Shown here one piece after another: positions 6,332 to 63,766 of a DNA stretch of 64,000 nucleotides (position 1 is the stretch's first letter; every line of letters starts with the position of its first letter). The notes beneath the pieces were generated by a model. It ran no database searches and had not been told where the DNA came from. It was given only the letters and a program-made list of their open reading frames with translations. The translations under genes and the position numbers were made by a program. The stretch is from assembly GCA_964561995.1 (NCBI GenBank), contig CAZLQZ010000002.1, positions 38,442 through 102,441 on the forward strand, written 5' to 3'. The DNA comes from an uncultured Methanosarcinales archaeon. GTDB lineage: Archaea; Nanobdellota; Nanobdellia; Woesearchaeales; JABIAG01.

Positions 6332-7071
6332 TTTGCTTCCTCATTAATACTTTTTAATCTTTCACAATCTTCCGGATTATCAATATCAAAACAGAATTTT
6401 AAACCATCTGGAATTTCTACACTATAAAATTCTCCGTTGTTTACAATATCTACTAATGGAATTGTATACCATCCTTTTTGCATTTCTGAAGTTGATAAAT
6501 CATTTTTCAATTTGATTGCATTATTTTTAGAAATTCCTAAAATACCAATATAAGTATAGAGTTGTTTTTCTTGCCATATTCCTTCTAAATTTATTCCCTT
6601 AGTTGGTATTGTCATTTTAATTATTTTTTTGTTTTCATCAATAATCATTGTTTCATCTTTTAACTTTGAAGAAAAATCAATTTTTTTAGTAACTATTATG
6701 TCTTTTTTATTTGAATTCATAATCTGTTTAATTAATTCATCATCATAAACCAAGTCACCATCAAAAATTAAAACGCTTTCATCTTTATTCATTTTGTCAG
6801 TTATGAAATTAAGTGCAAGGTAAACGCTGTATGCATTATCAAATTCCATAAATTTTTCATTATAAATTATCTTATCATGAACAGCTTCAATTAATTCTCG
6901 TTTATAACCACTAATTACATAAATCTCTTCTTTTTTTAATCCTGCATTTTTTAATGCTTGAATCTGTTTTTCAAGAATTGTTGTTTCGCCTATTTTTAAT
7001 AATGTTTTAGGAACATCAATTATTCCTTGTAATCTTCTATTATATCCTGCTGCTAAAATTACTGCTTTCAT
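6328..7071 (-). CDS. LicC-like nucleotidyltransferase (paralog of the N-terminal domain of the preceding fusion)
   Basis: MKAVILAAGYNRRLQGIIDVPKTLLKIG is about 55% identical by eye to the fusion N-terminus. It overlaps the fusion gene by 4 nt. Confidence 0.6.
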   Translation of the reverse strand: MKAVILAAGYNRRLQGIIDVPKTLLKIGETTILEKQIQALKNAGLKKEEIYVISGYKRELIEAVHDKIIYNEKFMEFDNAYSVYLALNFITDKMNKDESVLIFDGDLVYDDELIKQIMNSNKKDIIVTKKIDFSSKLKDETMIIDENKKIIKMTIPTKGINLEGIWQEKQLYTYIGILGISKNNAIKLKNDLSTSEMQKGWYTIPLVDIVNNGEFYSVEIPDGLKFCFDIDNPEDCERLKSINEEAK

Positions 7072-25302: not shown

Positions 25303-26459
25303 TTTTCAAATAACTCCAAAGTTTTATCACTAATTTTATCCCAAGTATAATTTTTAATTTTTTCAATAATTTTTTCCATTTTTTCTTTAATTTTTTTATC
25401 ATCAAATATGTCTTTAACATGTTCTGCGATTTGTTTATGAATATTAGCTTCCATTTCAAGTGGATATCCCCCTATTTCTTTAAGAACATATTTTAGTCCT
25501 CCCATGTCTGCAAGTATTGATGGGATTCCTAAACTCATTGCTTCAACTGCTGTAAGTCCAAATCCTTCTCCAGTGGATGCAAGTACAAATATGTCTGCTA
25601 AAGAATAATAATCATCAACAGAAGGAACTTTTCCTGTAAAAAAACAATTATTTTCAACATTATTTTCTTTAGCAATTTTTTTTAATTCTTCGCCATAACC
25701 TTGATCTTCACCAACAAAAACAAAACTTGTTGAAGGTTCATTTTTTAAAATTTCTTTAGCTGCTTTTATAATATGTTGAGCTCCTTTATATTTTACTAAT
25801 CTTGCAACAAATAGTATTATCTTTTTTGGATTATTAAATTGTTTTTTTAAGTTTTCAACATTTTTTCTTCTTATTTTTTCAATACCATTTGGAATCAATT
25901 CAATTTTATTTTTACAATTTATGATTTCATTATATTGTTTAATATTTTCAGGAGTTAAAGCAATCAAGTTTTTTGCCCTTTTAAGAATTCTTCTTCCAAT
26001 AATTGAATCAAATATATTTTTCAAAAAACCTAAAACTCCATCATAGTGGGCGATTATATCATGTGCTGTAAGAATATATTTTTTTGAATATTTTGATACG
26101 ATGTCCGCTTCGTACGTTTGATATCCGTGTACATGAACAATATCATATTTATTTATGTTATTTTTAAGAAAACGCTTCATTTGAGGATTGAAACTATAAG
26201 GAAATAATTGAAATAAAGGTTGAAATCTAAAAATTTTAATTCCTTCAACGTTTTCTTTGTAACTTTTTTTATTTTTTGATTGAAAACTGAAAAATCTTCC
26301 TGTTGAAAATCCTCTTGTATCATTATTAGTTAAAGAAGTTGAAGTAATGACTGTAACATCGTGTCCTTTATTTTTGAATTGTTTAGATAATTCATGTACT
26401 ACTTTTTCTGATCCTCCTATTGCAGGTGGAAATCTATGACATACTTCTAATATTTTCAT
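25299..26459 (-). CDS. GT4 (group 1) glycosyltransferase
   Basis: GEGFGLTAVEAMSLGIPSI motif. 4-nt overlap with neighbours. Confidence 0.7.
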   Translation of the reverse strand: MKILEVCHRFPPAIGGSEKVVHELSKQFKNKGHDVTVITSTSLTNNDTRGFSTGRFFSFQSKNKKSYKENVEGIKIFRFQPLFQLFPYSFNPQMKRFLKNNINKYDIVHVHGYQTYEADIVSKYSKKYILTAHDIIAHYDGVLGFLKNIFDSIIGRRILKRAKNLIALTPENIKQYNEIINCKNKIELIPNGIEKIRRKNVENLKKQFNNPKKIILFVARLVKYKGAQHIIKAAKEILKNEPSTSFVFVGEDQGYGEELKKIAKENNVENNCFFTGKVPSVDDYYSLADIFVLASTGEGFGLTAVEAMSLGIPSILADMGGLKYVLKEIGGYPLEMEANIHKQIAEHVKDIFDDKKIKEKMEKIIEKIKNYTWDKISDKTLELFEK

Positions 26460-27583
26460 TTTAATTCTCCATAAATTTCTTCATATTTAGCAATTGTATC
26501 TTTCCATAAAAATTTCTTTTCAGGAAATTTGTCATATTCTTTATTAAAAATGCTTACTACTCCTGATGTAATTTCTTTTTCATTTCCTGGTTCAACTAAT
26601 TTTCCTTTTCCAGTTATTACTTCCGGTAGAGAGGTCGTATTTGATGCTACTACCGGTTTTCCTAAGCTACAGGCTTCTACACAAGTATAACCAAATCCTT
26701 CTGAAAGTGATGGGATAACAACACAATCTGCCATTATAACATAATTTGGAAGTTCACTATAAGGTACTGGATCAAGAATAACAACTTCTTCTTTAATCTT
26801 AAGTTCTTTAATTATATTAATCAATTTATCATATTCTTTTTTGTATGTTTTATCTTTGCTTAATATTAATACTAATCTTGAGTTTTTAATTTGTTTTTTA
26901 ATTAAAGGTACTGCTTTAATCAAGTATTCAAATCCTTTAGATGTTCCAGGTCTTCCGGATGCAAAATAAACAAATTTATTTTTCAAGTTGAGTTTATTTC
27001 TTATTTTATCTCCATTATATTTTTTTGGATTCCATTGTTCGTAGTCCATTCCATTATGAACAGTAATTACTTTTTTCTCTGGAATTTTTAGTTTAAGTAA
27101 TTCTTTTTTAGTTGAATTTGATACACAAGCATATTTATCAAAAGAAATATTATAAATTCTTTTTTCAAGAAAGTTATGAATAAAAGCAGAAGTTTTACTC
27201 TTTTTTGTAACATTTTTCCACAAATTTACCCAGACTTCATGGACTGTAATTAAAACTTTTTTCTTATTAATTTTTGCTCCAATCCATGCTGGTAAACTTC
27301 CAGTAAAAGTTGTTGTATGAACTAAATCATATTTTTTACTCTCTTTGATTACTTTTGGAATTGCAAATAATGTGAAGAAATATCTTGAATTAAATTTTGG
27401 AACTAAAATTCTTTCAATTTCTACTCCATTTAAGATTTCTTTTCTTTTAGTATTGGGTAATCTAGAAGTAATTACTTTAATTTTATGACCTTTTTTTGCT
27501 AAACCTTCACATAAATTTTTGAATACTATCTCTACTCCTCCTATGTGAGGTAAGTAATATTCTAATACAAATAATATCTTCAT
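26456..27583 (-). CDS. GT4 (group 1) glycosyltransferase
   Basis: SEGFGYTCVEACSLGKPVVAS motif. Confidence 0.7.
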   Translation of the reverse strand: MKILFVLEYYLPHIGGVEIVFKNLCEGLAKKGHKIKVITSRLPNTKRKEILNGVEIERILVPKFNSRYFFTLFAIPKVIKESKKYDLVHTTTFTGSLPAWIGAKINKKKVLITVHEVWVNLWKNVTKKSKTSAFIHNFLEKRIYNISFDKYACVSNSTKKELLKLKIPEKKVITVHNGMDYEQWNPKKYNGDKIRNKLNLKNKFVYFASGRPGTSKGFEYLIKAVPLIKKQIKNSRLVLILSKDKTYKKEYDKLINIIKELKIKEEVVILDPVPYSELPNYVIMADCVVIPSLSEGFGYTCVEACSLGKPVVASNTTSLPEVITGKGKLVEPGNEKEITSGVVSIFNKEYDKFPEKKFLWKDTIAKYEEIYGELK

Positions 27584-41179: not shown

Positions 41180-41245
41180 AAACTAGTTTTACCTGTAAAA
41201 CTACAGGTGTGGTACTCAATTATTGTGTGCGCTACAGGTGGTGTT
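41180..41245 (+). promoter_or_regulatory. candidate operator/promoter of the nrd operon: palindrome CCTGTAAAACTACAGG plus a second CTACAGGTG copy, and a GGTGG SD
   Basis: Perfect inverted repeat at 41192-41207. CTACAGGTG repeated 32 bp downstream (41233-41241). Confidence 0.35.
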
Positions 41246-41696
41246 TAAAATGAAATGTCCTTTTTGTAATTCCAATGAATTAAAAGTTGTTGAAACTAGG
41301 GAATCGGTTGATAATCTTACGAGAAGAAGAAAAGAATGTTTTTCTTGTAATAAAAGATTTACTACATATGAAAAAATTGATTTGGGTAATATTTTTGTAG
41401 TTAAAAAAGATGGAACAAAACAAGAATTCAAAGAACAAAAAATCAAAGGGAGTATAATTAGAGCGTATGATAAAAGAAACTTTCCTGAAGATAAAGTTGA
41501 AAAGATTTCAAGAGATATAATTTCTAAGTTATACTCATTGGGTCAAAAAGAAGTTCTTTCAACTCAGATCGGAAGGATGATTTTAAGTAAGTTAAAAACT
41601 TTAGATAAACTTGCATATTTACGATTTAGTTATGTCTTTAACGATTTTCAAGACATTGAGAATATAAAAGAGGTTATTAAAAAAATAGAAAAATGA
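41223..41696 (+). CDS. nrdR: NrdR transcriptional repressor (Zn-ribbon plus ATP-cone)
   Basis: MKCPFCNSNELKVVETRE...RRRKECFSCNKRFTTYEKID is the canonical NrdR N-terminus. 157 aa. Confidence 0.8.
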   Translation: MCALQVVFKMKCPFCNSNELKVVETRESVDNLTRRRKECFSCNKRFTTYEKIDLGNIFVVKKDGTKQEFKEQKIKGSIIRAYDKRNFPEDKVEKISRDIISKLYSLGQKEVLSTQIGRMILSKLKTLDKLAYLRFSYVFNDFQDIENIKEVIKKIEK

Positions 41697-43531
41697 TTGT
41701 ATTAGAAGAAAGAAATCAGGAATTGCTGCAAAAATTCAAAAAGAAACATGAAGAATTTCAAAAATATAGTAATCTTGTTAATCATGTTAATATTGTAAAA
41801 AGTTATCTTGAAAATCTGGATTGGAAAGTTAAAGAAAATTCCAATATGAGTTTTTCTTTGCAAGGTTTAAATAATTATATTACTTCTAAAGTTACAACTG
41901 ATTTTTGGTTGTCAACAATTTATAGTGCGAAAATTGCCGATGCTCATAAAGAAGGCGATATGCACATTCATGATTTGTCTATGTTGAGTCCTTATTGTGT
42001 AGGGTGGGATTTGATGGATTTATTATTGAAGGGTTTTGGTGGTGTTTCAAATAAAATACAATCTTTGCCCCCTAAACATTTCAAGTCTGCTTTAGGTCAA
42101 ATTGTTAATTTCTTTTATACTTTACAAGGCGAAAGTGCTGGAGCTCAAGCATTTTCTAATCTTGATACTTTACTAGCTCCTTTTATTAGATTTGACAATT
42201 TAAGTTATGATGAAGTCAAACAAGCTTTGCAAGAATTTATTTTTAATCTTAATATTCCAACTAGGACCGGTTTTCAAACACCTTTTACAAATCTTACTTT
42301 TGATTTGAAATGTAGTCCAATATTTAAACAACTATTTGTAATTATTGGTGGAAAACCTGTTGATTTTAAATATGGTGAATTTCAAAAAGAAATGGATTTA
42401 CTGAATAAAGCTTTTGCAGATGTAATGATTGAAGGGGACGCATCTGGCAGAGTTTTTTCTTTTCCAATTCCGACATATAATATAACTAAAGATTTTGATT
42501 GGGATAATGAGAATTATGAAAAAATCTGGATTATGACTGCAAAATATGGTGTTCCTTATTTTGCTAATTATATTAATTCTGATATGAAACCCGAAGATGC
42601 AATGAGCATGTGTTGCAGGTTGAGATTGGATAAAAGACAATTAAATAAACGGGGTGGTGGGTTGTTTGGTTCTAATCCTTTAACTGGTTCGTTGGGTGTT
42701 GTAACTATTAATCTTCCAAGAATTAGTTTTATTTCAAAAAGTATGTCTGATTTTAAAGAAAATCTTTTATCTATTCTGGAATTAGCAAAAGATTCTTTAG
42801 AATTAAAAAGAGTAATCATTGAACAATTTACTGAGTTGGGTTTGTATCCTTATTCAAAATTTTATCTTAGTTCCATTAAAAAAAATCATGGTGAATATTG
42901 GGCTAATCATTTTTCTACAATTGGGATTGTTGGAATGAATGAAGCATTAATTAATCTTGTTGGCAAAGATATTACTAGTAGTGCTGGTTCAAATGCTGCA
43001 AAAGAAATTTTGGATTTTATGAGAGAAAAAATTTTAGAATATCAGAAAAAAACAGGAAATAATTATAATTTAGAAGCTACTCCTGCTGAAGGAACTTCTT
43101 ATAGGTTGGCAAATTTAGATAATAAAAAGTTCTCATTATCAAATTCTTATTACACCAATTCTTCACAATTGCCTGTTGGATTTACGGATGATTTATTTCA
43201 TGCATTAGATTTGCAAGATGAAATTCAGTGTAAATATACTGGGGGTACTGTGTTTCATGCTTTTATTGGTGAAGAATTGCCCGATTCTAAATCTGTAAAA
43301 CAATTAGTAAAGAAAATTGCTTCAAATTATTCTTTACCTTATTTTACTTTAACTCCTACTTTTAGTATTTGTTTACAGCACAATTATATTTCTGGAAAAC
43401 ATGAAATTTGTCCTACTTGTGGGAAGAAATGTGAAGTTTATAGTCGTATTGTTGGTTATTTAAGACCTGTTGATCAGTGGAATAAGGGCAAGCAAAAAGA
43501 GTTTTTTGATAGAAAGGAATTTTTAGTATGA
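41693..43531 (+). CDS. nrdD: anaerobic ribonucleoside-triphosphate reductase (class III RNR)
   Basis: C-terminal Zn site CPTCGKKC and glycyl-radical motif SRIVGYL. 612 aa. Confidence 0.85.
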   Translation: MIVLEERNQELLQKFKKKHEEFQKYSNLVNHVNIVKSYLENLDWKVKENSNMSFSLQGLNNYITSKVTTDFWLSTIYSAKIADAHKEGDMHIHDLSMLSPYCVGWDLMDLLLKGFGGVSNKIQSLPPKHFKSALGQIVNFFYTLQGESAGAQAFSNLDTLLAPFIRFDNLSYDEVKQALQEFIFNLNIPTRTGFQTPFTNLTFDLKCSPIFKQLFVIIGGKPVDFKYGEFQKEMDLLNKAFADVMIEGDASGRVFSFPIPTYNITKDFDWDNENYEKIWIMTAKYGVPYFANYINSDMKPEDAMSMCCRLRLDKRQLNKRGGGLFGSNPLTGSLGVVTINLPRISFISKSMSDFKENLLSILELAKDSLELKRVIIEQFTELGLYPYSKFYLSSIKKNHGEYWANHFSTIGIVGMNEALINLVGKDITSSAGSNAAKEILDFMREKILEYQKKTGNNYNLEATPAEGTSYRLANLDNKKFSLSNSYYTNSSQLPVGFTDDLFHALDLQDEIQCKYTGGTVFHAFIGEELPDSKSVKQLVKKIASNYSLPYFTLTPTFSICLQHNYISGKHEICPTCGKKCEVYSRIVGYLRPVDQWNKGKQKEFFDRKEFLV

Positions 43532-44004
43532 TTGGTGCATTTCAAAAATTAACTTTGCAAGATTATCCTGGTAGGGTTGCTTGTATAATTTTCACGAGAG
43601 GTTGTAATTTAAGGTGTAGTTATTGTCATAATCCTGATTTATTAAAAGAAGGTAAAAATATTTCTGAAATTGAAATTTTAAATTTTCTTGAAAACAGAAA
43701 AAATTTGCTTGATGGGGTTGTAGTTACTGGTGGTGAGCCAACAATTCATGGTGACTTGCCTAATTTATTGTTTAAAATTAAAAAACTGGGTTACTCAATT
43801 AAATTATATACTAATGGTACTAGACCTTTGATGCTAAAAAAGTTAACTGAAAAAAATTTGGTTGATGTAGTTGCAATGGATTATGAATTAAGTGATGAGA
43901 AATCTAAAAAAATTGTAAAAGAAAGTGGTGTTGAATATGAATTAAGGGTTCATTCTGATGAAAATGTAAAAGAAAAGAATGCAGTTTACTATGATATAAA
44001 ATAA
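43528..44004 (+). CDS. nrdG: anaerobic RNR activating enzyme (radical SAM)
   Basis: CNLRCSYCHN CxxxCxxC cluster motif. 158 aa. Translationally coupled to nrdD. Confidence 0.8.
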   Translation: MIGAFQKLTLQDYPGRVACIIFTRGCNLRCSYCHNPDLLKEGKNISEIEILNFLENRKNLLDGVVVTGGEPTIHGDLPNLLFKIKKLGYSIKLYTNGTRPLMLKKLTEKNLVDVVAMDYELSDEKSKKIVKESGVEYELRVHSDENVKEKNAVYYDIK

Positions 44005-44007
44005 ATA

Positions 44008-44121
44008 TGGGGATGTGAGGATTTGAACCCCAATCCGTCGGTATCTTCAAAAATCATTGACTTTCGTCTCATATTTCCATTGTTGGAGCCGACTATTCTA
44101 GCCAGATTATACTACATCCCC
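44008..44121 (-). tRNA. tRNA-Trp (anticodon CCA) with a ~40-nt intron 3' of position 37
   Basis: Reverse complement reads GGGGATG...CATCCCC-A (acceptor), a GG-containing D-loop, anticodon stem GTCGG/CCGAC with loop CUCCAA(intron)A, and T-arm TGGGG-TTCAAAT-CCTCA. The D-stem is weak and AT-rich, hence moderate confidence. Confidence 0.65.
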
Positions 44122-50498: not shown

Positions 50499-52226
50499 TT
50501 AATGATCTAAATGCTTAGCAAGAACAATATAAGTAATAATTACACCTGTTAATATTCCCATTACATAAACTAAAAATAGTTCATATTTACCTTCTTCTTT
50601 TTCTTGAAAGGTAATCTTATTATTATTAGTAAAATAAACGTCAAAACTACTTAATTCTAAGGCATATTGAGAAAATAATAAAGAAGAATAAATGCTTTCA
50701 TTTTTAAGATTAGATGAATATTCATAATACGAATATCCTATAATTGGAAAAAATCCTCTTTCTTGTTCTTTTATTATATTATTTTTAGCAACTTTTAGTT
50801 TTAAGTCAACAATTTGTTTTAAAACTTCTTCATCAGATGTTCCCATGCTACTAATTATTGAATCTGAATTTGCTTTAGCTAAAGATGCTGAGTTTAAACA
50901 TAAGGCATAATTTCTATTGTTATATTCGGTTCTGGCTTTTTCAATTTGTCCTTTTATTTGTTCTAAATCAATAGGATATACTTCCATTACATATTGATAT
51001 CGTTCTTCAGCTTCTGCAGTTTTAGTTTGGCATGATTCTTTTAAAACTTCTTGACTGAGTTCTAACTCTTTTCCTTCCATCTCAAAAAATTTACTCCATG
51101 AAATTGCCGAATTAAATCTTTCTTCAGAATAAGAATATAAATATATGGCATTTACTGTTTCATTATTATTTAATGATAAGTTGGCATTATTTAATAGTGT
51201 TGATGCTTCATTAATTCTTTCTTTAACTATCATAAAAGTTTGAAGTTTTGGAATCGTATTTATTTTTTTATTTGTAATATCTTTATCATACTTTTTTATT
51301 TTTTCAATAAGCACTTTTATTTTTGATTGAAGTAAATCTTCGCTAATACCTTCATTTGCATAATTGTTTAATCTTATATTTGCTGAAAAACACTTTGACG
51401 CTGCAGAATAATAATCTCCTTTTTCATATAATAATTTTGATTCGTTAACGATATTAATGGTTGAATTTAATTCCTTTTTTTCTTTTTCAATAGGGGGAAT
51501 TAATTCTTTTGTTCTATCACAAAGTTCTTTAGAAACTTGTTTCATAATCTTATTATATTCTTCATTAATTTCTACATCTTTATTAACATCTTTTTTTAAT
51601 TCTTTATTTAGTAATTCTGTTAAAGCATCATTTAAGATTCCTATTTCTTTGACGATTATTCCTTTTTCTTTTGCATATTTAATTAAATCAAAAGTTTCAT
51701 TATTTTCTTCAGTAATTGATTCTCCAATTGGAATTAGTACTTTTTTTATACCTGCTTTTTTAGCTGCTTCAATTTTTTCTTTTATTCCGCTAACGGGTCC
51801 TACTATTCCTCCTGAATTAATTGTTCCAGTCATAGCTGTTTTTTGATCGAATTTTTCATCAAGTAATGTTATGACCGTTAAAGCAGACATTGCGGCACCT
51901 GCGGATGGTCCTCCAACAATTGGTGCAGAAGATTTAATAGTATAAACAAAATCTAAATTAGAACAGTCTGTTTCTAAATATTTACATGCAATTTCTTTTG
52001 CTAATCTTGTTGAAACTTGGGTGTCTATTTTTGTTAATGGTGAAGTTTCTAAAAAAACACGTCCTTTTCCATCAGTAATTTCTAAAGTTAATTCAGCAGT
52101 TCCGCCTTCAAAACCATTGTCTGTTTCTTTTACTGCTAGTAATGTCATACTGTTTTCAACTGCAAGTACAGAGTTAATCATTAAAAGCAATATAAAAAAC
52201 ATAAAAAACAGCAATCTTTTTTTCAT
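50499..52226 (-). CDS. Lon (S16) protease-domain protein without an AAA+ module. Signal peptide plus C-terminal TM anchor.
   Basis: GPSAGAAMSALTVI (catalytic Ser) and GIKEKIEAAKKAGIKKVLIP (catalytic Lys region). N-terminal signal. C-terminal hydrophobic helix. Confidence 0.6.
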   Translation of the reverse strand: MKKRLLFFMFFILLLMINSVLAVENSMTLLAVKETDNGFEGGTAELTLEITDGKGRVFLETSPLTKIDTQVSTRLAKEIACKYLETDCSNLDFVYTIKSSAPIVGGPSAGAAMSALTVITLLDEKFDQKTAMTGTINSGGIVGPVSGIKEKIEAAKKAGIKKVLIPIGESITEENNETFDLIKYAKEKGIIVKEIGILNDALTELLNKELKKDVNKDVEINEEYNKIMKQVSKELCDRTKELIPPIEKEKKELNSTINIVNESKLLYEKGDYYSAASKCFSANIRLNNYANEGISEDLLQSKIKVLIEKIKKYDKDITNKKINTIPKLQTFMIVKERINEASTLLNNANLSLNNNETVNAIYLYSYSEERFNSAISWSKFFEMEGKELELSQEVLKESCQTKTAEAEERYQYVMEVYPIDLEQIKGQIEKARTEYNNRNYALCLNSASLAKANSDSIISSMGTSDEEVLKQIVDLKLKVAKNNIIKEQERGFFPIIGYSYYEYSSNLKNESIYSSLLFSQYALELSSFDVYFTNNNKITFQEKEEGKYELFLVYVMGILTGVIITYIVLAKHLDH

Positions 52227-54816: not shown

Positions 54817-55464
54817 ATGAATCATACTGAAATAGTACATCAATCTTCGATAAATCGTTTATTGATTGAATTAGGTAATGTAACTTTAGAAGGAAAGATA
54901 AAAGAATGTTCTGGTTCTGATAAATTATTAGTAATAGTGCCTGAAATTAATGAAAGTAAAAGTTCTTTAAGTTATGTTGTGGATTATTTTTCAGATTATA
55001 ATATTTTCACTTTAGATTTAACTCCTTTTGATAAAGAGAGTAAAGATTTCAATGGGGATTTATTTAGAATGATTGATTTATCCATCGATTTAATTGAAAA
55101 GGATTATTTTAATACAAGATACAATAAAGAAATTAATTCAAGAGCATTTTTTGGTTATGGTTTTGGTGCATCAATTGGATTATTAGGTTCTTCAACAAAA
55201 TCTGCATTTAGTGCTTTTGGATTATTTAATCCTGTTATTTCATCATTAACTTATTCTTCCGGATTGCCTGTAGATTTGTTTTGTGATTGTAAGCAACCCA
55301 TTAAACCATTTTTATTAATGAAATATTTAAATGAAAAATTAATTTTTTCAAAAAACAATCTTGGATTTGATGTTAATTCTCCAAAAATTAATTATTTAGA
55401 TATTTGGAAAAACAATCCAGAAGTGTTAACTTATTATAAGAACTGGTTTCAATCTAATTTTTAA
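54817..55464 (+). CDS. hypothetical protein (possible alpha/beta-fold)
   Basis: 215 aa. No confident motif. Confidence 0.25.
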   Translation: MNHTEIVHQSSINRLLIELGNVTLEGKIKECSGSDKLLVIVPEINESKSSLSYVVDYFSDYNIFTLDLTPFDKESKDFNGDLFRMIDLSIDLIEKDYFNTRYNKEINSRAFFGYGFGASIGLLGSSTKSAFSAFGLFNPVISSLTYSSGLPVDLFCDCKQPIKPFLLMKYLNEKLIFSKNNLGFDVNSPKINYLDIWKNNPEVLTYYKNWFQSNF

Positions 55465-57612: not shown

Positions 57613-58857
57613 TCAAATTATTTTAAGATCAACATTAAAGATTGTTTTACTTAGTTCACTAAGTTTATTATTATTTTCATGATTTTGTGATGAGTTGATA
57701 AGTTCATCCAATTTAGTAATCTCGTCATTGAGTCTGATTAATTCTTCTTTAGATCTTGATAGTTTTATTTCTTCTTCTTTTATTTTTTTATTAATTTCTA
57801 TGTTTTCAAGTTTAATGTTAAGTTCTTTATTTTTTTCATTAAGTTTATTGTGATTTATTTTAATATCTTTAAGTAAATTAGAATTTTTAATTGATTCTAA
57901 ACAATTTTTTTCTTGTTTTTCATTAAGGTTTAAAGTTTTAATACTTTTTTCTAATTGTTCTAAAATTGAAATAATCATTAATTCATTATCTTCTTGAAAA
58001 GCTTTAATTGGATTATCTATATATGTTTGAATTACATTTCCTTCTAAAGAAATTTTTTGATATTTTCTTAATGCTCTTGCTAGTACTGAAAAATATTCTT
58101 TTACTTTGTTAGAAATACTTTCAATTTCTTTTTCAACGTTTTTTCTTTCTTCATTAAGTTGATTAAATGATTTGTATTCTTCGCTTTCTTCTAATAATTT
58201 AGCATTTTCTTGTATTTTTTTAATTTGTTGAGTTAATTCTTCTTTTTTAATCTTTTTTTCTTTAAGATCTTTAATTTCAACTTCAATTTTTGCTTTTTCT
58301 TCTTTTAATGATGCGATTGTTAATTTTAATTCATTAATCTTATCTAATCCTGCTTTTTCTAATTTCTTTTTGAATTTGTTAACTTGAAGATTTATTTCAC
58401 CAATTGATTTGTAAACTGCTTGGACTTCATTAAAAAATAAATGTTGAGCTGCTTGATAGCTTTTTTGAGTTTTTTTAGCTAAATCGTCTAATTTTAAGTT
58501 TAAATCCGTATTAAAAGCAATTACTGTTTTCAAATCTCGTTTTTCTGAAATTATAAGATCATTAAAAAACCATGCAACATCTTTAGTAAAATTATTTCTA
58601 TTGACCAACACAATATTTCTTATTCTATTTTCAACTTTATATTTTTCACTTACTTTTGCTTCATTTAAAATTACTATTTTATCTTGAAGAATTTGTTTTT
58701 GTTCTGTTAATTTATTCAATAATTCTGAAATTTCAACACTTAAATCAATATTTAATAGTTTTTCATCTATCCATTTTTCTATTTCATCTATTTTAACTGT
58801 TTCTTTAGTTATTTCTTTTTGTTCTTCTTTGAACAATTTTTTAATGAATTTTAGCAT
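57613..58857 (-). CDS. long coiled-coil protein of unknown function
   Basis: 414 aa, K/E-rich heptad repeats throughout. Confidence 0.3.
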   Translation of the reverse strand: MLKFIKKLFKEEQKEITKETVKIDEIEKWIDEKLLNIDLSVEISELLNKLTEQKQILQDKIVILNEAKVSEKYKVENRIRNIVLVNRNNFTKDVAWFFNDLIISEKRDLKTVIAFNTDLNLKLDDLAKKTQKSYQAAQHLFFNEVQAVYKSIGEINLQVNKFKKKLEKAGLDKINELKLTIASLKEEKAKIEVEIKDLKEKKIKKEELTQQIKKIQENAKLLEESEEYKSFNQLNEERKNVEKEIESISNKVKEYFSVLARALRKYQKISLEGNVIQTYIDNPIKAFQEDNELMIISILEQLEKSIKTLNLNEKQEKNCLESIKNSNLLKDIKINHNKLNEKNKELNIKLENIEINKKIKEEEIKLSRSKEELIRLNDEITKLDELINSSQNHENNNKLSELSKTIFNVDLKII

Positions 58858-58899
58858 AATTGTTAAGAATGCAATGGTTCTTATAAATATTTTTAATAT

Positions 58900-59649
58900 T
58901 TACTTGTTAATAATATAAAATAACTCACTTTCTGTTTCTATATATTCAAAATTTATATCTAGTCTTTCTAACATCAAATCCATCCATCCTCTTTTAGGAA
59001 AGTTCATGGGATTTCCAGCTAAAGTTTTAGTAGAAAATGAAATTACCAAATTTTTAGTAGGTAAATCTTTAATTAAATTTTCAGTAATTTTATGCCCTCT
59101 GCCAAGTTCTAAACTATCGACTAGTTTAAGTAGAAAATAAATGTCCGCAATAGGAAACTTTTTGATTTCTAAAACATCTTTACAGTAAGCTTTTCCATTT
59201 ATTTTATTTTTTTCAAAGAATTTATTTATTTCTTTAACTTGTTCTTGATTAATTTCATAGGCAATATATTCCGGATTGCATTCTAATTGTTTGTATGATT
59301 GAGGATTTAAACCACTTCCTAAATCAACTATTTTTTTTGGTTTTTTAGTAAGTTCAAATATTTTTTTGTATATAGAATAATCTCTGTCTTTTGTTGATAA
59401 ATGATCTAATCCTTTGGCTTTAGTAAATACACCAATACCTTTGTGTAAGTTTGTTTTTACCGATTTAACTAAATCTTGAAAATGTTTTTTCTTTTCTAAC
59501 TTGTTGATTAGAGCTGGATTATTTCTTAATTGTTTAATAATTTCTTTTTTAATAACTTCTTTACTAATTTCTTTATATTTGCCTGTTGACGCTGCAATAA
59601 CTAGCTCATCGAATTTTTTCTCATTTAATTCTTTACTATATATTTTCAT
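58900..59649 (-). CDS. putative SAM-dependent methyltransferase-like protein
   Basis: VDLGSGLNP glycine-rich motif I-like segment. Confidence 0.35.
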   Translation of the reverse strand: MKIYSKELNEKKFDELVIAASTGKYKEISKEVIKKEIIKQLRNNPALINKLEKKKHFQDLVKSVKTNLHKGIGVFTKAKGLDHLSTKDRDYSIYKKIFELTKKPKKIVDLGSGLNPQSYKQLECNPEYIAYEINQEQVKEINKFFEKNKINGKAYCKDVLEIKKFPIADIYFLLKLVDSLELGRGHKITENLIKDLPTKNLVISFSTKTLAGNPMNFPKRGWMDLMLERLDINFEYIETESELFYIINK

Positions 59650-59687
59650 ATTAAGTACTAATTAGTTTGAATATTTAAAATGTTTCC

Positions 59688-60365
59688 TTAGATTGCTTGA
59701 AGAACGTATTTTTTATCCATTCCTAAACTCCAGTTCTGAATTGCTCTAACTAAGGCATTTTTTCTACTTTTATTTAATGGAACTGTAATTCTTTGTTCTT
59801 CATAGGGTATGTGATGCATTAAAGTTGGAATTTTTTGTCTAATTTTATGAAAAGATTCATATTTTGAACTATGTTGTATTGCAATCATGGAAGATATTAA
59901 GTCTGCTAAATTAATTATTGGTATGCTTTTATCTCCAGATTGGACTAAATTAATTTTTTTATGACTAATGTTAAACCCCCTAGCTTTCATATATTGTTGA
60001 AGGATATCAACACTTTTTTGTTCAGAATTATAAAATTGATCAATATAAATTTCTGTATTTTTAGCGTCATAGCCTTTTGCAGTAACTATGTGAGCAATAC
60101 TTGCATGCTGAACTTCTTGCATAGAAAATCCTGAAGATCTAGCTAGTGTCCAATAATAATTATCTAATCCTTTTTCAAACATTTCATCTAAAGATGGAAA
60201 ATTTTCTTCTCCATTAAGAATATCTTTTGCTTTTAAAAGTGCATTCCATCCTAAATCTATTGTTAATTCTGGGTTAGAGGTCTCAGCAACAACGATTACT
60301 CGCTGACTGCCTAAATAAAGTGGAGTTTCGTCTATACCTAAGTATTTCATACTTTTTAAAGGCAT
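59688..60365 (-). CDS. hypothetical protein, possibly DUF99/UPF0215-like
   Basis: N-terminal YLGIDETP...RVIVVAE resembles the GIDD start of the archaeal UPF0215 family. Low confidence. Confidence 0.25.
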   Translation of the reverse strand: MPLKSMKYLGIDETPLYLGSQRVIVVAETSNPELTIDLGWNALLKAKDILNGEENFPSLDEMFEKGLDNYYWTLARSSGFSMQEVQHASIAHIVTAKGYDAKNTEIYIDQFYNSEQKSVDILQQYMKARGFNISHKKINLVQSGDKSIPIINLADLISSMIAIQHSSKYESFHKIRQKIPTLMHHIPYEEQRITVPLNKSRKNALVRAIQNWSLGMDKKYVLQAI

Positions 60366-60407
60366 ATTTTATTTATTATTATTGTGGTTTTAGAAAAGAG
60401 TATATTT

Positions 60408-61493
60408 TTATGAAATTAATTTTTTAAAAAAGTATTTACTATTTAATACACTGTTAGTATTTATTTTTCTTTTAATATTTTTTTTACTAAAATTGTTTGA
60501 AAAATTTAATCTATCCTGAGCTTCTTCAATTATTTTTTTTGGATGAGAAAATATTTGATATGCAGAAAATATGCCCGCTGTAAGTCCTGTTAAAAAACTT
60601 CCAAATCCAAATAGTCCTGGATTTGTTTGTCCAATTTTAATTCCAAGATAAGCACCTAAAAATGGACTTGCAAAACTAATTGCTCGATTTCCTATCATAA
60701 AAAGTTCTCCCCCTGTATTAGTTTCATTCATTTCAAAATTATAACTAGAAATTTGAACATTTGTAACTTCGGATTCAAGTAATTTTCCAAAACAACCATC
60801 AGTTGTAATTCCACCCTTTATTTCGACATTGATTCGATGAAAATTGTGCCAGCATTTCCATCCTAATTTTGTAATTCCATATCTTAATTCTTGAATGTGC
60901 GGTATTACGTAATTGACATTTGCTTTAAAAGGTGTGACATAATTTTCTAATACACAAATATTTTTTTTTACATCTTGTTCAAAAGGTATTAACAAATCTT
61001 CATCTATTTTATTTAAAGTAGATTTTTTACCTAATTGAATTATTATTGGAATTACTTCTGAAGTCCTAGAAGCATAATTATTTGGCATATTTGCATTGTT
61101 ATCAATTATATTGATTAGAGGATTAACAATTTTAGATTCATATCTTTTTCCAGTAATCATGTCTTTTACAGTAACACTATTTTCTTTTTTATCAACAATA
61201 TAAGGTCTTGATTGTATAGTTGGTCTAGCAAAAGTGTAATCTGTATTTGTTGGGTCCCAAAAAAGCATATCTGATAAATCTGGAACTGGTCCATGTAAAT
61301 AAACAGTTGATCCATGAGAATAATTTCTTTTTTCTTGCCATTCTTGAATTCCTTGTTCAACTTTTGTTTTAAATTCATTTTTTACAGAAAATAAATGATC
61401 TTCTGAAAATAAAGTTTCATAATTAGCAATTCTATTACGAATAATTTCTTCTAATACATTTGGACTTAAAGTAGCTTTAATTATTTCTACCAT
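60408..61493 (-). CDS. hypothetical protein with a C-terminal glycine-zipper TM helix
   Basis: 361 aa. C-terminal GLFGFGSFLTGLTAGIFSAY. No recognised N-terminal domain. Confidence 0.3.
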   Translation of the reverse strand: MVEIIKATLSPNVLEEIIRNRIANYETLFSEDHLFSVKNEFKTKVEQGIQEWQEKRNYSHGSTVYLHGPVPDLSDMLFWDPTNTDYTFARPTIQSRPYIVDKKENSVTVKDMITGKRYESKIVNPLINIIDNNANMPNNYASRTSEVIPIIIQLGKKSTLNKIDEDLLIPFEQDVKKNICVLENYVTPFKANVNYVIPHIQELRYGITKLGWKCWHNFHRINVEIKGGITTDGCFGKLLESEVTNVQISSYNFEMNETNTGGELFMIGNRAISFASPFLGAYLGIKIGQTNPGLFGFGSFLTGLTAGIFSAYQIFSHPKKIIEEAQDRLNFSNNFSKKNIKRKINTNSVLNSKYFFKKLIS

Positions 61494-61495
61494 TT

Positions 61496-62515
61496 CTATT
61501 TATATTCTCCAAATTTATTTTTAAATTCACCATTACTTAAACCGCCACTCATATTCATAATTGGAAATCCTTCTAAATCTCTTAATGCTTGCATAAATAA
61601 TGCATACTTTGGTTCAATATCTGCTTTTTTTGCACCTTCTCCAATTCCTTCAAGATTCATTTTTGTTTTTATTTTATCGTAAATTGGATTTCCATCTAAA
61701 TCTGGTTTTTCTGAAGAACCAGTCAAATTATTTTGATATTGAAGCATAACTAATGCACCAAATTCTGGTCCTAATGACTGACTTAATTGAATTGCAAGAT
61801 TGGAAAATATTTCTGCTTCTTTTGTTTTATAATTAATGTTTAATTCATATTCTCTTGCTTTAAGGTCTAGTTCTGCTGAGCCAGTAATTCTTCTTATATT
61901 TGCATCTTTTTGTGCTTTGATTTCAGCAATTGCTTTTTGTAATTCTTCTTTTGCTTTAAGGATTGGTCCTTTTACATTTGTTTCATAATCCATTTCTGGC
62001 ACTTCACTAATAACTTCTGGAAATATGATGTTTGTTAATTCAATATTTTCAGTTTTTATTCCCCAATAAGAAGTTTCACTTTGTAAAAAGTTTTCAATAT
62101 TTTCTCTTAAAATACTTCTATTATTATAAATTGCTTTCCAAGTGTGATCTCTTGCAATTTTTTCACTTCCTTGTCCTCTTAATAATGTTTCTAATTCTTC
62201 ATCTAAATCAGAAGGTGCATTTTCCATATAGTTTCGTGGGTTTTCAATTCTATATCTGGTTGATAAAGAAATATCTAATTTAAATCCAGCATCAAATTTT
62301 GAATTATCACTTTTACATATTGCTGAAAATGATGTTTTATATCTATGTGGTTCTAATGATACAATTGCAACTTGATGTAATCTTGGAATGCCAATTTTAA
62401 AACCGGGTTCTTTTATGTCAACAATTCTTCCTCCAAAAGTTACAATACCTCTCTCGTGAGGATTAATTCTTTGAATCCATCTTACATCTTTATATTCTGG
62501 TTTTTCAAATGTCAT
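61496..62515 (-). CDS. SPFH/band-7 (stomatin/flotillin-like) domain protein lacking an N-terminal TM segment
   Basis: VDIKEPGFKIGIPRLHQVAIVS plus a long coiled-coil region typical of SPFH proteins. No hydrophobic N-terminus. Confidence 0.5.
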   Translation of the reverse strand: MTFEKPEYKDVRWIQRINPHERGIVTFGGRIVDIKEPGFKIGIPRLHQVAIVSLEPHRYKTSFSAICKSDNSKFDAGFKLDISLSTRYRIENPRNYMENAPSDLDEELETLLRGQGSEKIARDHTWKAIYNNRSILRENIENFLQSETSYWGIKTENIELTNIIFPEVISEVPEMDYETNVKGPILKAKEELQKAIAEIKAQKDANIRRITGSAELDLKAREYELNINYKTKEAEIFSNLAIQLSQSLGPEFGALVMLQYQNNLTGSSEKPDLDGNPIYDKIKTKMNLEGIGEGAKKADIEPKYALFMQALRDLEGFPIMNMSGGLSNGEFKNKFGEYK

Positions 62516-62641: not shown

Positions 62642-62995
62642 ATGAGTTATTTAAGAAATACAGTTGGTGCATTGCTTGCAAGTGTTGCTTTAGCTAGTAC
62701 TGCAATGGGCGGAGAATTAGAAAGAAAGCTAGGTTTTCCCCTTAATGAAGAAAATGCAGTAACAAAACAAGAAAAAGCCTTAGTTCAAAAAGCAAATCAA
62801 AAATTTAATTCTTTAGAACAACAAGAAAAACTTTTAGATTTTTATAAAAAATGTGTTAAAGATGCTAATTTAACTGATTCAAAATATCAAATGGGAATTT
62901 TAAGAGGGGAAGAAAAAGTAGAAACTTTAAGAAATCAAGTTCAGAATTATGCTTTTTTAGTTCCTGAATATACCAAACAGTTATCCCAAAAGTAA
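62642..62995 (+). CDS. small secreted protein
   Basis: 117 aa with N-terminal signal peptide. Confidence 0.3.
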   Translation: MSYLRNTVGALLASVALASTAMGGELERKLGFPLNEENAVTKQEKALVQKANQKFNSLEQQEKLLDFYKKCVKDANLTDSKYQMGILRGEEKVETLRNQVQNYAFLVPEYTKQLSQK

Positions 62996-63766
62996 ATGCC
63001 ATTTTTCACTTTCATTATCAGAAAGATTCATTTTGTCAATAGCTTTCTTAATTTTAGCAATTTGATGCTCATTTAAATTTTCTTTTGCATCTAAAAATTT
63101 CAAATATAAATCTGCGAAACTTTTTTTATTTAATTTGACAATCTCATTAATTTTTATTCCAAATTTGCTAAAAGCGATTACAATGTCATTATCCTTTGAA
63201 TATTCTTCTAAAAGATTGGTTGCTTTTTTAAGAAGTGTTAATTGTTTAATTAAACTTTCAACAGAATTATTTCTTGTTGCTTTTTCAAATTCATTTAATA
63301 ATTTAATTAATTTTGGAAAATCTTGACTTACAACTTTTTGTGCTTTTTCCCCAATAATTTCTCCAACTTTAACTTCAGTTAATACTTTTGCCATTCTAGC
63401 AATACACATTGCTTTAACTCCTGCTTTAGAGTACCACCTAGCTTTTTCCATTTCATCAAGGTTTTGTTGTTCAACATCCATAATTTGTTTTCTTAATGCT
63501 TTTTCGCTTAATTCTTCAACAACTTTTAAAGCATAATCTCTTTGAATTAAAAGAATTAAATCGTATAAATCTTTTGCATCTTTATGATTAATTAAAGAAC
63601 CTTTTTTTATTATGTGTATTTTGTTATTAATAACTAATTCAGCTTGTGATTTTAAACTTAAAGCTTCTGTGGTACTTGCTATTGTTTTTGGTTGTCCAAG
63701 TAATGCTGCACCTAAAGCTGTAGCAAGATAAAGTTTTTTAAGCCAATTTTTTTTTAACTTACTCAT
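62981..63766 (-). CDS. secreted alpha-helical protein
   Basis: 261 aa. Signal peptide MSKLKKNWLKKLYLATALGAALLG. Confidence 0.3.
   Translation of the reverse strand: MSKLKKNWLKKLYLATALGAALLGQPKTIASTTEALSLKSQAELVINNKIHIIKKGSLINHKDAKDLYDLILLIQRDYALKVVEELSEKALRKQIMDVEQQNLDEMEKARWYSKAGVKAMCIARMAKVLTEVKVGEIIGEKAQKVVSQDFPKLIKLLNEFEKATRNNSVESLIKQLTLLKKATNLLEEYSKDNDIVIAFSKFGIKINEIVKLNKKSFADLYLKFLDAKENLNEHQIAKIKKAIDKMNLSDNESEKWHLLLG

Follow-up and report, generated by a model that had tools for sequence, protein, structure and literature searches.

The window analysed here is a 64,000-nucleotide stretch of contig CAZLQZ010000002.1 from an uncultured archaeon. It contains a run of five minus-strand open reading frames (ORFs) headed by the gene for an SPFH/band-7 protein that lacks the usual membrane anchor. 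The initial annotation treated the run as one operon of unassigned function and suggested a functional module, perhaps related to membrane microdomains, stress or defence. The locus is probably organised on a smaller scale, as a conserved two-gene SPFH cassette followed by three unrelated neighbours, with the product of the second gene (the partner) acting as a membrane tether. Genes 1 and 2 alone are read as a unit because three independent lines of evidence, namely spacing, promoter grammar and conservation, single them out. Genes 3 to 5 sit close to them because the genome is compact. The five co-directional ORFs lie at the coordinates first annotated, and the gaps between them are 2, 42, 38 and 42 base pairs (bp):

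62515 to 61496, minus strand: gene 1, SPFH/Band_7 protein of 339 amino acids; 2 bp to gene 2.
61493 to 60408, minus strand: gene 2, partner protein of 361 amino acids; 42 bp to gene 3.
60365 to 59688, minus strand: gene 3, near-orphan protein of 225 amino acids; 38 bp to gene 4.
59649 to 58900, minus strand: gene 4, FmrO/Arm(Rmt)-type methyltransferase homologue of 249 amino acids; 42 bp to gene 5.
58857 to 57613, minus strand: gene 5, candidate coiled-coil protein of 414 amino acids; 125 bp to the gene for cysteinyl-tRNA synthetase (CysRS).

The product of gene 1 belongs to Band_7 (PF01145), which it matches with 76.4 bits against a Pfam cut-off of 23.6 (E = 3.8e-21). The matching region is the following:

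61973 to 62470, minus strand: SPFH domain of gene 1, residues 16 to 181, from the Pfam Band_7 match.

Downstream of the domain there is a helical region and then a conserved C-terminal tail, YALFMxALRxLEGFPIMNM. The families closest to the protein are HflK and stomatin, both of them distant. A profile of gene 1 aligns with stomatin chains at 6e-5 over residues 15 to 218. Against the HflK equivalog TIGR01933 it scores 40.1 bits, below the NCBIfam cut-off of 159.4, which places it outside that equivalog.

An N-terminal anchor is typical of the SPFH superfamily (10 of the 12 prokaryotic subfamilies) without being strictly defining. Gene 1 was found to encode no N-terminal hydrophobic anchor and no hydrophobic segment elsewhere, the maximum Kyte-Doolittle mean over 19 residues being 1.13. 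No N-terminal extension of the protein is possible, as the ORF is already maximal and its Woesearchaeota orthologue begins with the same MTFKKP. Judged from the sequence, the description of this protein as an SPFH protein without a transmembrane (TM) anchor is correct. A word-index search with it returned the query itself and nothing else, and a scan of IMG/VR gave no match. Among the matches listed, a scan of the GTDB genomes with the SPFH alignment recovered the known Woesearchaeota locus alone. The only proteins found by tblastn against plasmids were slipin/SPFH proteins at no more than 27.5% identity.

The partner begins with helices and has a conserved core at approximately residues 85 to 250; towards its C-terminal end lie a glycine-zipper hairpin of two helices and a basic tail. 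No match to it was found in Pfam, NCBIfam, PADLOC, PHROG or the PDB. An exhaustive HMMER search of 1.84 billion representative proteins returned three clusters at E ≤ 1e-3, the query's own included. The other two are represented by P0013 (388 amino acids, 29% identity) and P0014 (271 amino acids, approximately 26 to 27% identity). By these searches the partner is a new and very rare family. A word-index search returned only the query, IMG/VR gave no match, and neither did tblastn against plasmids and phages. Scans of the JGI metagenomes were also without a match. Among the matches listed, the pair has a single locus in the GTDB species representatives. The alignment of the partner with its homologues contains no conserved catalytic-looking motif.

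It was originally stated that the partner has no recognisable domain and a single glycine-zipper TM helix at its C-terminal. The lack of a domain match and the glycine-rich hydrophobic region were both reproduced, and the region was found to consist of two helices instead of one:

60546 to 60671, minus strand: glycine-zipper hydrophobic hairpin of the partner, approximately residues 275 to 316, from GxxxG motifs and hydropathy.

The first helix of the hairpin carries GAYLGIKIG, a GxxxGxxxG motif at residue 280. The second, GLFGFGSFLTGLTAGIFSA, occupies residues 293 to 311 and has a GxxxG at residue 303. The tail that follows, residues 317 to 361, has a net charge of +8. The hairpin is also present in P0013.

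The order of the two genes is conserved. In all three lineages with a partner homologue, the partner gene directly follows a gene of the same SPFH subfamily. In a Candidatus Woesearchaeota metagenome-assembled genome (MAG; locus L003), the gene for P0013 overlaps the stop codon of a Band_7 gene by 4 nucleotides. This Band_7 orthologue has 337 amino acids and is 57% identical to gene 1. The gene for P0014 begins 62 bp after an SPFH gene in three Logan contigs with a guanine-plus-cytosine (GC) content of 37 to 39%. For the SPFH product encoded there (a fragment, in locus L005), the alignment covers the C-terminal 210 residues of gene 1, with approximately 30% identity. The flanks differ completely, with Hef and primase at one of the two other loci, a spermine-synthase-like membrane protein at the second, and fibrillarin and CysRS in the present genome. 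The pair has been seen twice without genes 3 to 5, and these three genes gave no tblastn match in the pair-bearing loci L003 and L004. The known occurrences of the pair are so far the present AT-rich archaeal genome, the Candidatus Woesearchaeota (DPANN) MAG and a small number of metagenome contigs without an assignment. In L003 the pair is followed after 35 bp by a gene for a 74-residue protein with two TM helices (6536 to 6760, plus strand), which has no counterpart in the window.

It is very improbable that the adjacency of the two genes merely reflects descent and that their products are functionally unconnected. This explanation draws on the number of lineages, which is three, and on two of these perhaps being fairly close DPANN relatives. 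It has to account for an adjacency that persists at partner identities of 23 to 30% and across a shift in GC content from 27% to 39%, while every other flanking gene has changed. It also has to account for the coupling of start and stop codons, with a gap of 2 bp here and an overlap of 4 nucleotides in L003.

The spacing of the remaining genes is ordinary for this genome. The window contains 38 co-directional gene pairs with a median gap of 4.5 bp, and 84% of them are no more than 45 bp apart; the tight packing from which an operon was originally deduced is thus no sign of one. The gaps of 38 to 42 bp are on the long side, and the 2-bp gap between genes 1 and 2 is alone distinctive. The partner ATG lies 2 bp past the SPFH stop codon and is preceded by the following motif:

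61507 to 61510, minus strand: GGAG, Shine-Dalgarno-like, 14 to 17 nucleotides upstream of the partner ATG and within the end of the SPFH gene, from reading of the sequence.

Together, the GGAG and the 2-bp gap suggest that translation of the partner is coupled to that of the SPFH gene.

Promoter grammar was assessed by scoring TATA elements as matches of at least 7 of 8 positions to TTTAWATA, starting between -38 and -22 from the ATG. Elements of this kind, mostly at -30/-31, precede 17 of the 33 genes with an upstream gap of at least 20 bp, and 8 are perfect. They precede one of the 21 genes with a gap below 20 bp (Fisher p = 3e-4 for the difference). At random coding positions, 8% reach this score and 0.2% are perfect. 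Shine-Dalgarno-like motifs were found at 8 of the 21 genes with a gap below 20 bp and at no gene with a gap of 20 to 63 bp. They are confined to overlapping or short-gap genes and to genes with gaps of at least 94 bp. The combined pattern would be the signature of leaderless transcripts, and the recurrent co-directional spacers of 36 to 42 bp look like minimal promoters. A leaderless promoter, with a TATA at -30, is often found in such spacers, and a spacing of approximately 40 bp between co-directional genes is therefore not evidence of an operon in this genome. Further examples of this grammar in the window lie upstream of the gene at 26456 to 27583 (minus strand) and upstream of position 54817. 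A scan for bacterial sigma-70 promoters and terminators gave counts equal to the shuffled expectation and was uninformative; the archaeal TATA analysis was used instead.

Within the five-gene run, two elements lie at this position:

59672 to 59679, minus strand: perfect TATA, TTTAAATA, -30 to -23 from the methyltransferase ATG, from the TTTAWATA scan.
58880 to 58887, minus strand: TATA-like TTTATAAG, -30 to -23 from the coiled-coil ATG, starting at the modal position of -30 and agreeing with the consensus in 6 of 8 bases.

The perfect TATA is a likely promoter of the methyltransferase gene and would give a leaderless transcript that carries no other gene. The coiled-coil gene probably has its own promoter as well. 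The form TTTATAAA is a common variant at -30 elsewhere in the window.

These observations bear directly on the proposal that all five genes form one co-transcribed module, with genes 3 to 5 working together with the SPFH pair in stress, defence or membrane microdomains. The shared strand, the gaps of at most 45 bp and the lack of a strong terminator between the genes are in its favour; the sole terminator-like site of the block lies inside the partner gene. The run also forms a block of rare or unassigned genes between the housekeeping genes for fibrillarin/Nop5 and CysRS. Against it stand the ordinary spacing, the perfect TATA of the methyltransferase gene and the near-TATA at the same position before the coiled-coil gene. 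In addition, the adjacency of genes 3 to 5 is kept in no related locus, the homologue of the 225-residue protein has a different context, and no PADLOC system is matched significantly. A five-gene module is considered quite improbable.

The idea of a functional module headed by an SPFH protein without a TM anchor thus survives for two conserved genes and not for five, as genes 1 and 2 alone co-occur elsewhere. The suggested defence role was not borne out: the SPFH protein, the partner and the 225-residue protein have no PADLOC match, and no relative of the partner was found in viruses or plasmids. It had also been stated that the module would fall if its members were individually conserved housekeeping genes with no conserved adjacency. 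The adjacency of genes 3 to 5 is indeed not conserved, and the 225-residue gene is a near-orphan, not a housekeeping gene.

For the two-gene cassette, a mechanism can be proposed. The C-terminal glycine-zipper hairpin of the partner would insert into the cytoplasmic membrane. The 270-residue N-terminal domain and the basic tail would both be cytoplasmic, a topology we infer from the +8 charge of the tail and the positive-inside rule. The cytoplasmic domain would bind the SPFH protein, perhaps via the conserved tail YALFMxALRxLEGFPIMNM. The SPFH protein is expected to oligomerise through its helical C-terminal half, as do stomatin, HflK/C and flotillin. In this way the partner would provide an attachment to the membrane that is built into the N-terminal part of other SPFH proteins. 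The physiological role of the assembly may be that of a membrane-microdomain or stress scaffold.

Several points weigh against the cassette with a tethering partner. The synteny statistics are thin, with three lineages only. The hydropathy of the hairpin is moderate (1.35) and below the usual TM threshold. P0014 is without a hydrophobic hairpin altogether, and no recoding or hidden TM hairpin was found when its sequence was followed beyond the stop codon. Membrane anchoring therefore cannot be the only role of the family, and the soluble domain must matter in itself. AlphaFold2 gave no usable model of the partner, with a pLDDT of 35.1 from a three-sequence alignment. The promoter evidence is also mixed. 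The partner gene has a 7/8 TATA-like match at -32, as the lone short-gap gene with one, and an internal promoter for it is possible, with approximately 8% of random coding positions scoring as high. The 225-residue gene has only a weak 6/8 match, and a TATA at -30 is compatible with read-through co-transcription of genes 3 to 5.

The hairpin-less homologue also favours a somewhat unlikely alternative, in which the pair is functional and the partner is not an anchor. The SPFH oligomer would instead regulate or cage a pore formed by the partner (a toxin, holin or stress-valve), or the two proteins would form a soluble cage and its cargo. Two of the three homologues carry GxxxGxxxG motifs, which typically accompany the homo-oligomeric packing of membrane helices. 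SPFH proteins often regulate a bound client, as in the HflK/C-FtsH and stomatin-channel pairs. The patchy and rare distribution of the pair would suit an accessory function. The partner has, on the other hand, no similarity to a known toxin, holin or defence protein in Pfam, PADLOC or PHROG, and no viral or plasmid relatives in IMG/VR or by tblastn against plasmids and phages. It also lacks a conserved catalytic-looking motif, and no immunity or regulator gene is conserved beside the pair.

A more elaborate form of the assembly is a split stomatin-like cage, in which the partner makes an oligomeric glycine-zipper pore or plug in the membrane and a soluble SPFH ring or cage nucleates on it. This arrangement is unlikely. 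If it were true, the membrane and scaffold parts of the cage would reside on two polypeptides, possibly gating a channel or stabilising the membrane in small cells.

The preferred reading, an anchor-less SPFH protein tethered by its partner, has a counterpart in bacteria. The soluble SPFH protein YdjI/SamI of Bacillus subtilis requires the operon-encoded YdjG and YdjH for its membrane association (PMC8581546; bioRxiv 10.64898/2026.02.06.704340). The architecture found here is like that of the PspA-YdjGHI (SamGHI) system in that an anchor-less SPFH protein is encoded with a putative membrane protein able to supply attachment. There are several differences. Homology of the partner to YdjG or YdjH was not detected (it has no Pfam or NCBIfam match), and the SPFH gene is the first of its unit, whereas it is the last in ydjGHI. 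No neighbour in the present locus matches PspA_IM30 or Snf7, so there is no PspA/ESCRT-III gene close by. The host is an archaeon, and its SPFH protein matches Band_7 (PF01145), with HflK and stomatin as its closest relatives.

More loosely, the cassette also resembles the stomatin/NfeD (STOPP) systems, which are two-gene SPFH units with a membrane-embedded operon partner and tight coupling (PMC2636767, PMC4208085). Examples are PH1511/PH1510 of Pyrococcus horikoshii, QmcA/YbbJ of E. coli and FloT/YuaF of B. subtilis. The SPFH domain of gene 1 is distantly related to stomatin. The differences are the absence of an NfeD domain, of an N-terminal hairpin or TM segment in the SPFH protein and of a ClpP-type protease domain. 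No match to NfeD (PF01957) at E ≤ 1 was found in the five proteins, P0013 or P0014, in agreement with its reported absence from the locus. In NfeD the TM helices are N-terminal and are followed at the C-terminal by an OB fold, whereas the hydrophobic helices of the partner are C-terminal. Seen against both systems, the pair would work like an SPFH protein with an operon partner while belonging to neither the NfeD nor the YdjGH family.

SPFH subfamilies that lack a TM segment have been on record since 2009, when 2 of the 12 prokaryotic subfamilies were described as soluble (Hinderhofer et al. 2009; PMC2636767). Gene 1 is like these groups, SPFH8 and SPFH9, in having no predicted TM region. Bacterial genomes were the main basis on which the two groups were defined, and in the sections used here no partner like the present one is described (PMC2636767).

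SPFH proteins act universally as membrane scaffolds, and the main clues to the role of a subfamily come from the partners encoded in its operon (NfeD, FtsH, YdjG/H). With the cassette there is a new partner family and what seems to be a second, independent case, in archaea, of a soluble SPFH protein borrowing an anchor encoded by its neighbour. If true, a borrowed anchor would support the view of scaffold and anchor as separable modules. The reach of the finding is limited, as the family is tiny and no phenotype is implied.

The three remaining genes can be described individually. The 225-residue protein of gene 3 had been called DUF99-like, which was not upheld: it has no match in Pfam, NCBIfam or the PDB at E ≤ 1 to 10 and none in PADLOC. 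The endonuclease-V-like DUF99 family (PF01949) was rejected for it, and also for its homologue P0012, with no Pfam match at E ≤ 1. P0012 is the only non-self homologue returned by the word-index search (44% identity). Its locus (L007) has an unrelated context, in which the gene upstream is a different one and the gene downstream is convergent. The alignment of the two found no match in the GTDB genomes or IMG/VR. On this evidence the gene is a rare near-orphan and not a housekeeping gene. The two proteins share invariant YLGIDET, IY(I/L)D and SGDKxxPIINxADL motifs. The order of these motifs (D12 and E13, then D109, then G144, D145 and K146, within GIDE...D...GDKxxP) recalls that of RNase HII. 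RNase HII was rejected as an assignment, with a non-significant hhalign result (probability 0.3%, E 0.22) and no PDB or Pfam match. In that non-significant comparison, the local alignment falls on the GDK/GDS motif.

AlphaFold2 gave no usable model of the 225-residue protein, with a pLDDT of 36.8 from a two-sequence alignment. Both this model and that of the partner are unusable because there is too little sequence depth. A Foldseek search of the two models against the PDB returned nothing below E = 0.13, with TM-scores of at most 0.19, and was discarded.

Gene 4 had been described as methyltransferase-like, which is well supported by matches to Pfam FmrO (42.5 bits against a cut-off of 27, 6.8e-11) and to Sgm in the PDB (3e-7). 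It shares its domain layout with the Arm/Rmt/Sgm (FmrO) 16S rRNA m7G1405 methyltransferases, together with motifs across the catalytic domain (HxSTxxR, xGLNP and FxTKxL). The motifs HxSTxxR, GLNP and F(S/P)TK(T/S)L are common to gene 4, Sgm and RmtC, and in gene 4 they read HLSTKDR, GSGLNP and FSTKTLAG. The Arm/Rmt/Sgm family confers aminoglycoside resistance. Gene 4 differs from it in being archaeal and in scoring 79.6 bits against the NCBIfam Rmt equivalog, far below the cut-off of 250 that serves as a proxy for resistance function. As far as its sequence tells, it is a genuine but distant FmrO/Arm-Rmt member, homologous to S-adenosylmethionine-dependent rRNA methyltransferases. In PADLOC it has a weak match to mad2 only, at 7.6e-5 over 86 residues of the generic methyltransferase fold.

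The assignment of gene 5 as a coiled-coil protein agrees with its composition and heptad periodicity. There are one proline and three glycines in 414 residues, 69% of the residues are E, K, Q, L, I or N, and the periodicity is 3.5 or 2.33 residues, all of which is consistent with a coiled coil. Matches in Pfam, NCBIfam and PADLOC are below threshold (JetC at 0.021 in PADLOC), and nothing was found in the PDB. The known linkage of PspA with SPFH proteins led to PspA/ESCRT-III being tried for this protein, and it was rejected with no Pfam or PDB support.

Fibrillarin and Nop5 are encoded just upstream of the five-gene region on the longer contig. Directly upstream of the SPFH gene, two convergent genes overlap by 15 bp. 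Neither could be assigned to a family, and both products have signal-peptide-like N-termini:

62642 to 62995, plus strand: protein of 117 amino acids.
62981 to 63766, minus strand: protein of 261 amino acids.

When genes 2, 3 and 5 are counted with these two, a 6-kb stretch rich in unassigned genes lies between fibrillarin/Nop5 and CysRS.

The GC content of the window, measured in 2-kb windows, is 23 to 31%. No paralogues were found within the window. An AglB/STT3 gene and an intron-containing tRNA are present. With fibrillarin and Nop5 they mark the genome as archaeal, and it is likely to be of DPANN type, as the closest relative of the SPFH gene among the matches listed comes from a Candidatus Woesearchaeota MAG. 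Other features in the window are the following:

44008 to 44121, minus strand: tRNA of 114 nucleotides with an intron of approximately 43 nucleotides; 41 bits in Rfam, and missed by ARAGORN, which reports no tRNA in the window.
50499 to 52226, minus strand: protein of 575 amino acids with an N-terminal signal/TM segment, a Lon_C (S16) protease domain and a C-terminal TM helix, without an AAA+ ATPase domain.
41223 to 44004, plus strand: overlapping three-gene cluster of an NrdR-like regulator (zinc ribbon and ATP-cone), an anaerobic NrdD and a radical-SAM activase.

The Lon_C gene is separated by approximately 5.4 kb from the end of the five-gene run and by approximately 9 kb from the SPFH gene, and it is not kept beside the SPFH pair in other loci. 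NrdR, which the regulator of the three-gene cluster resembles, is usually regarded as a bacterial protein.

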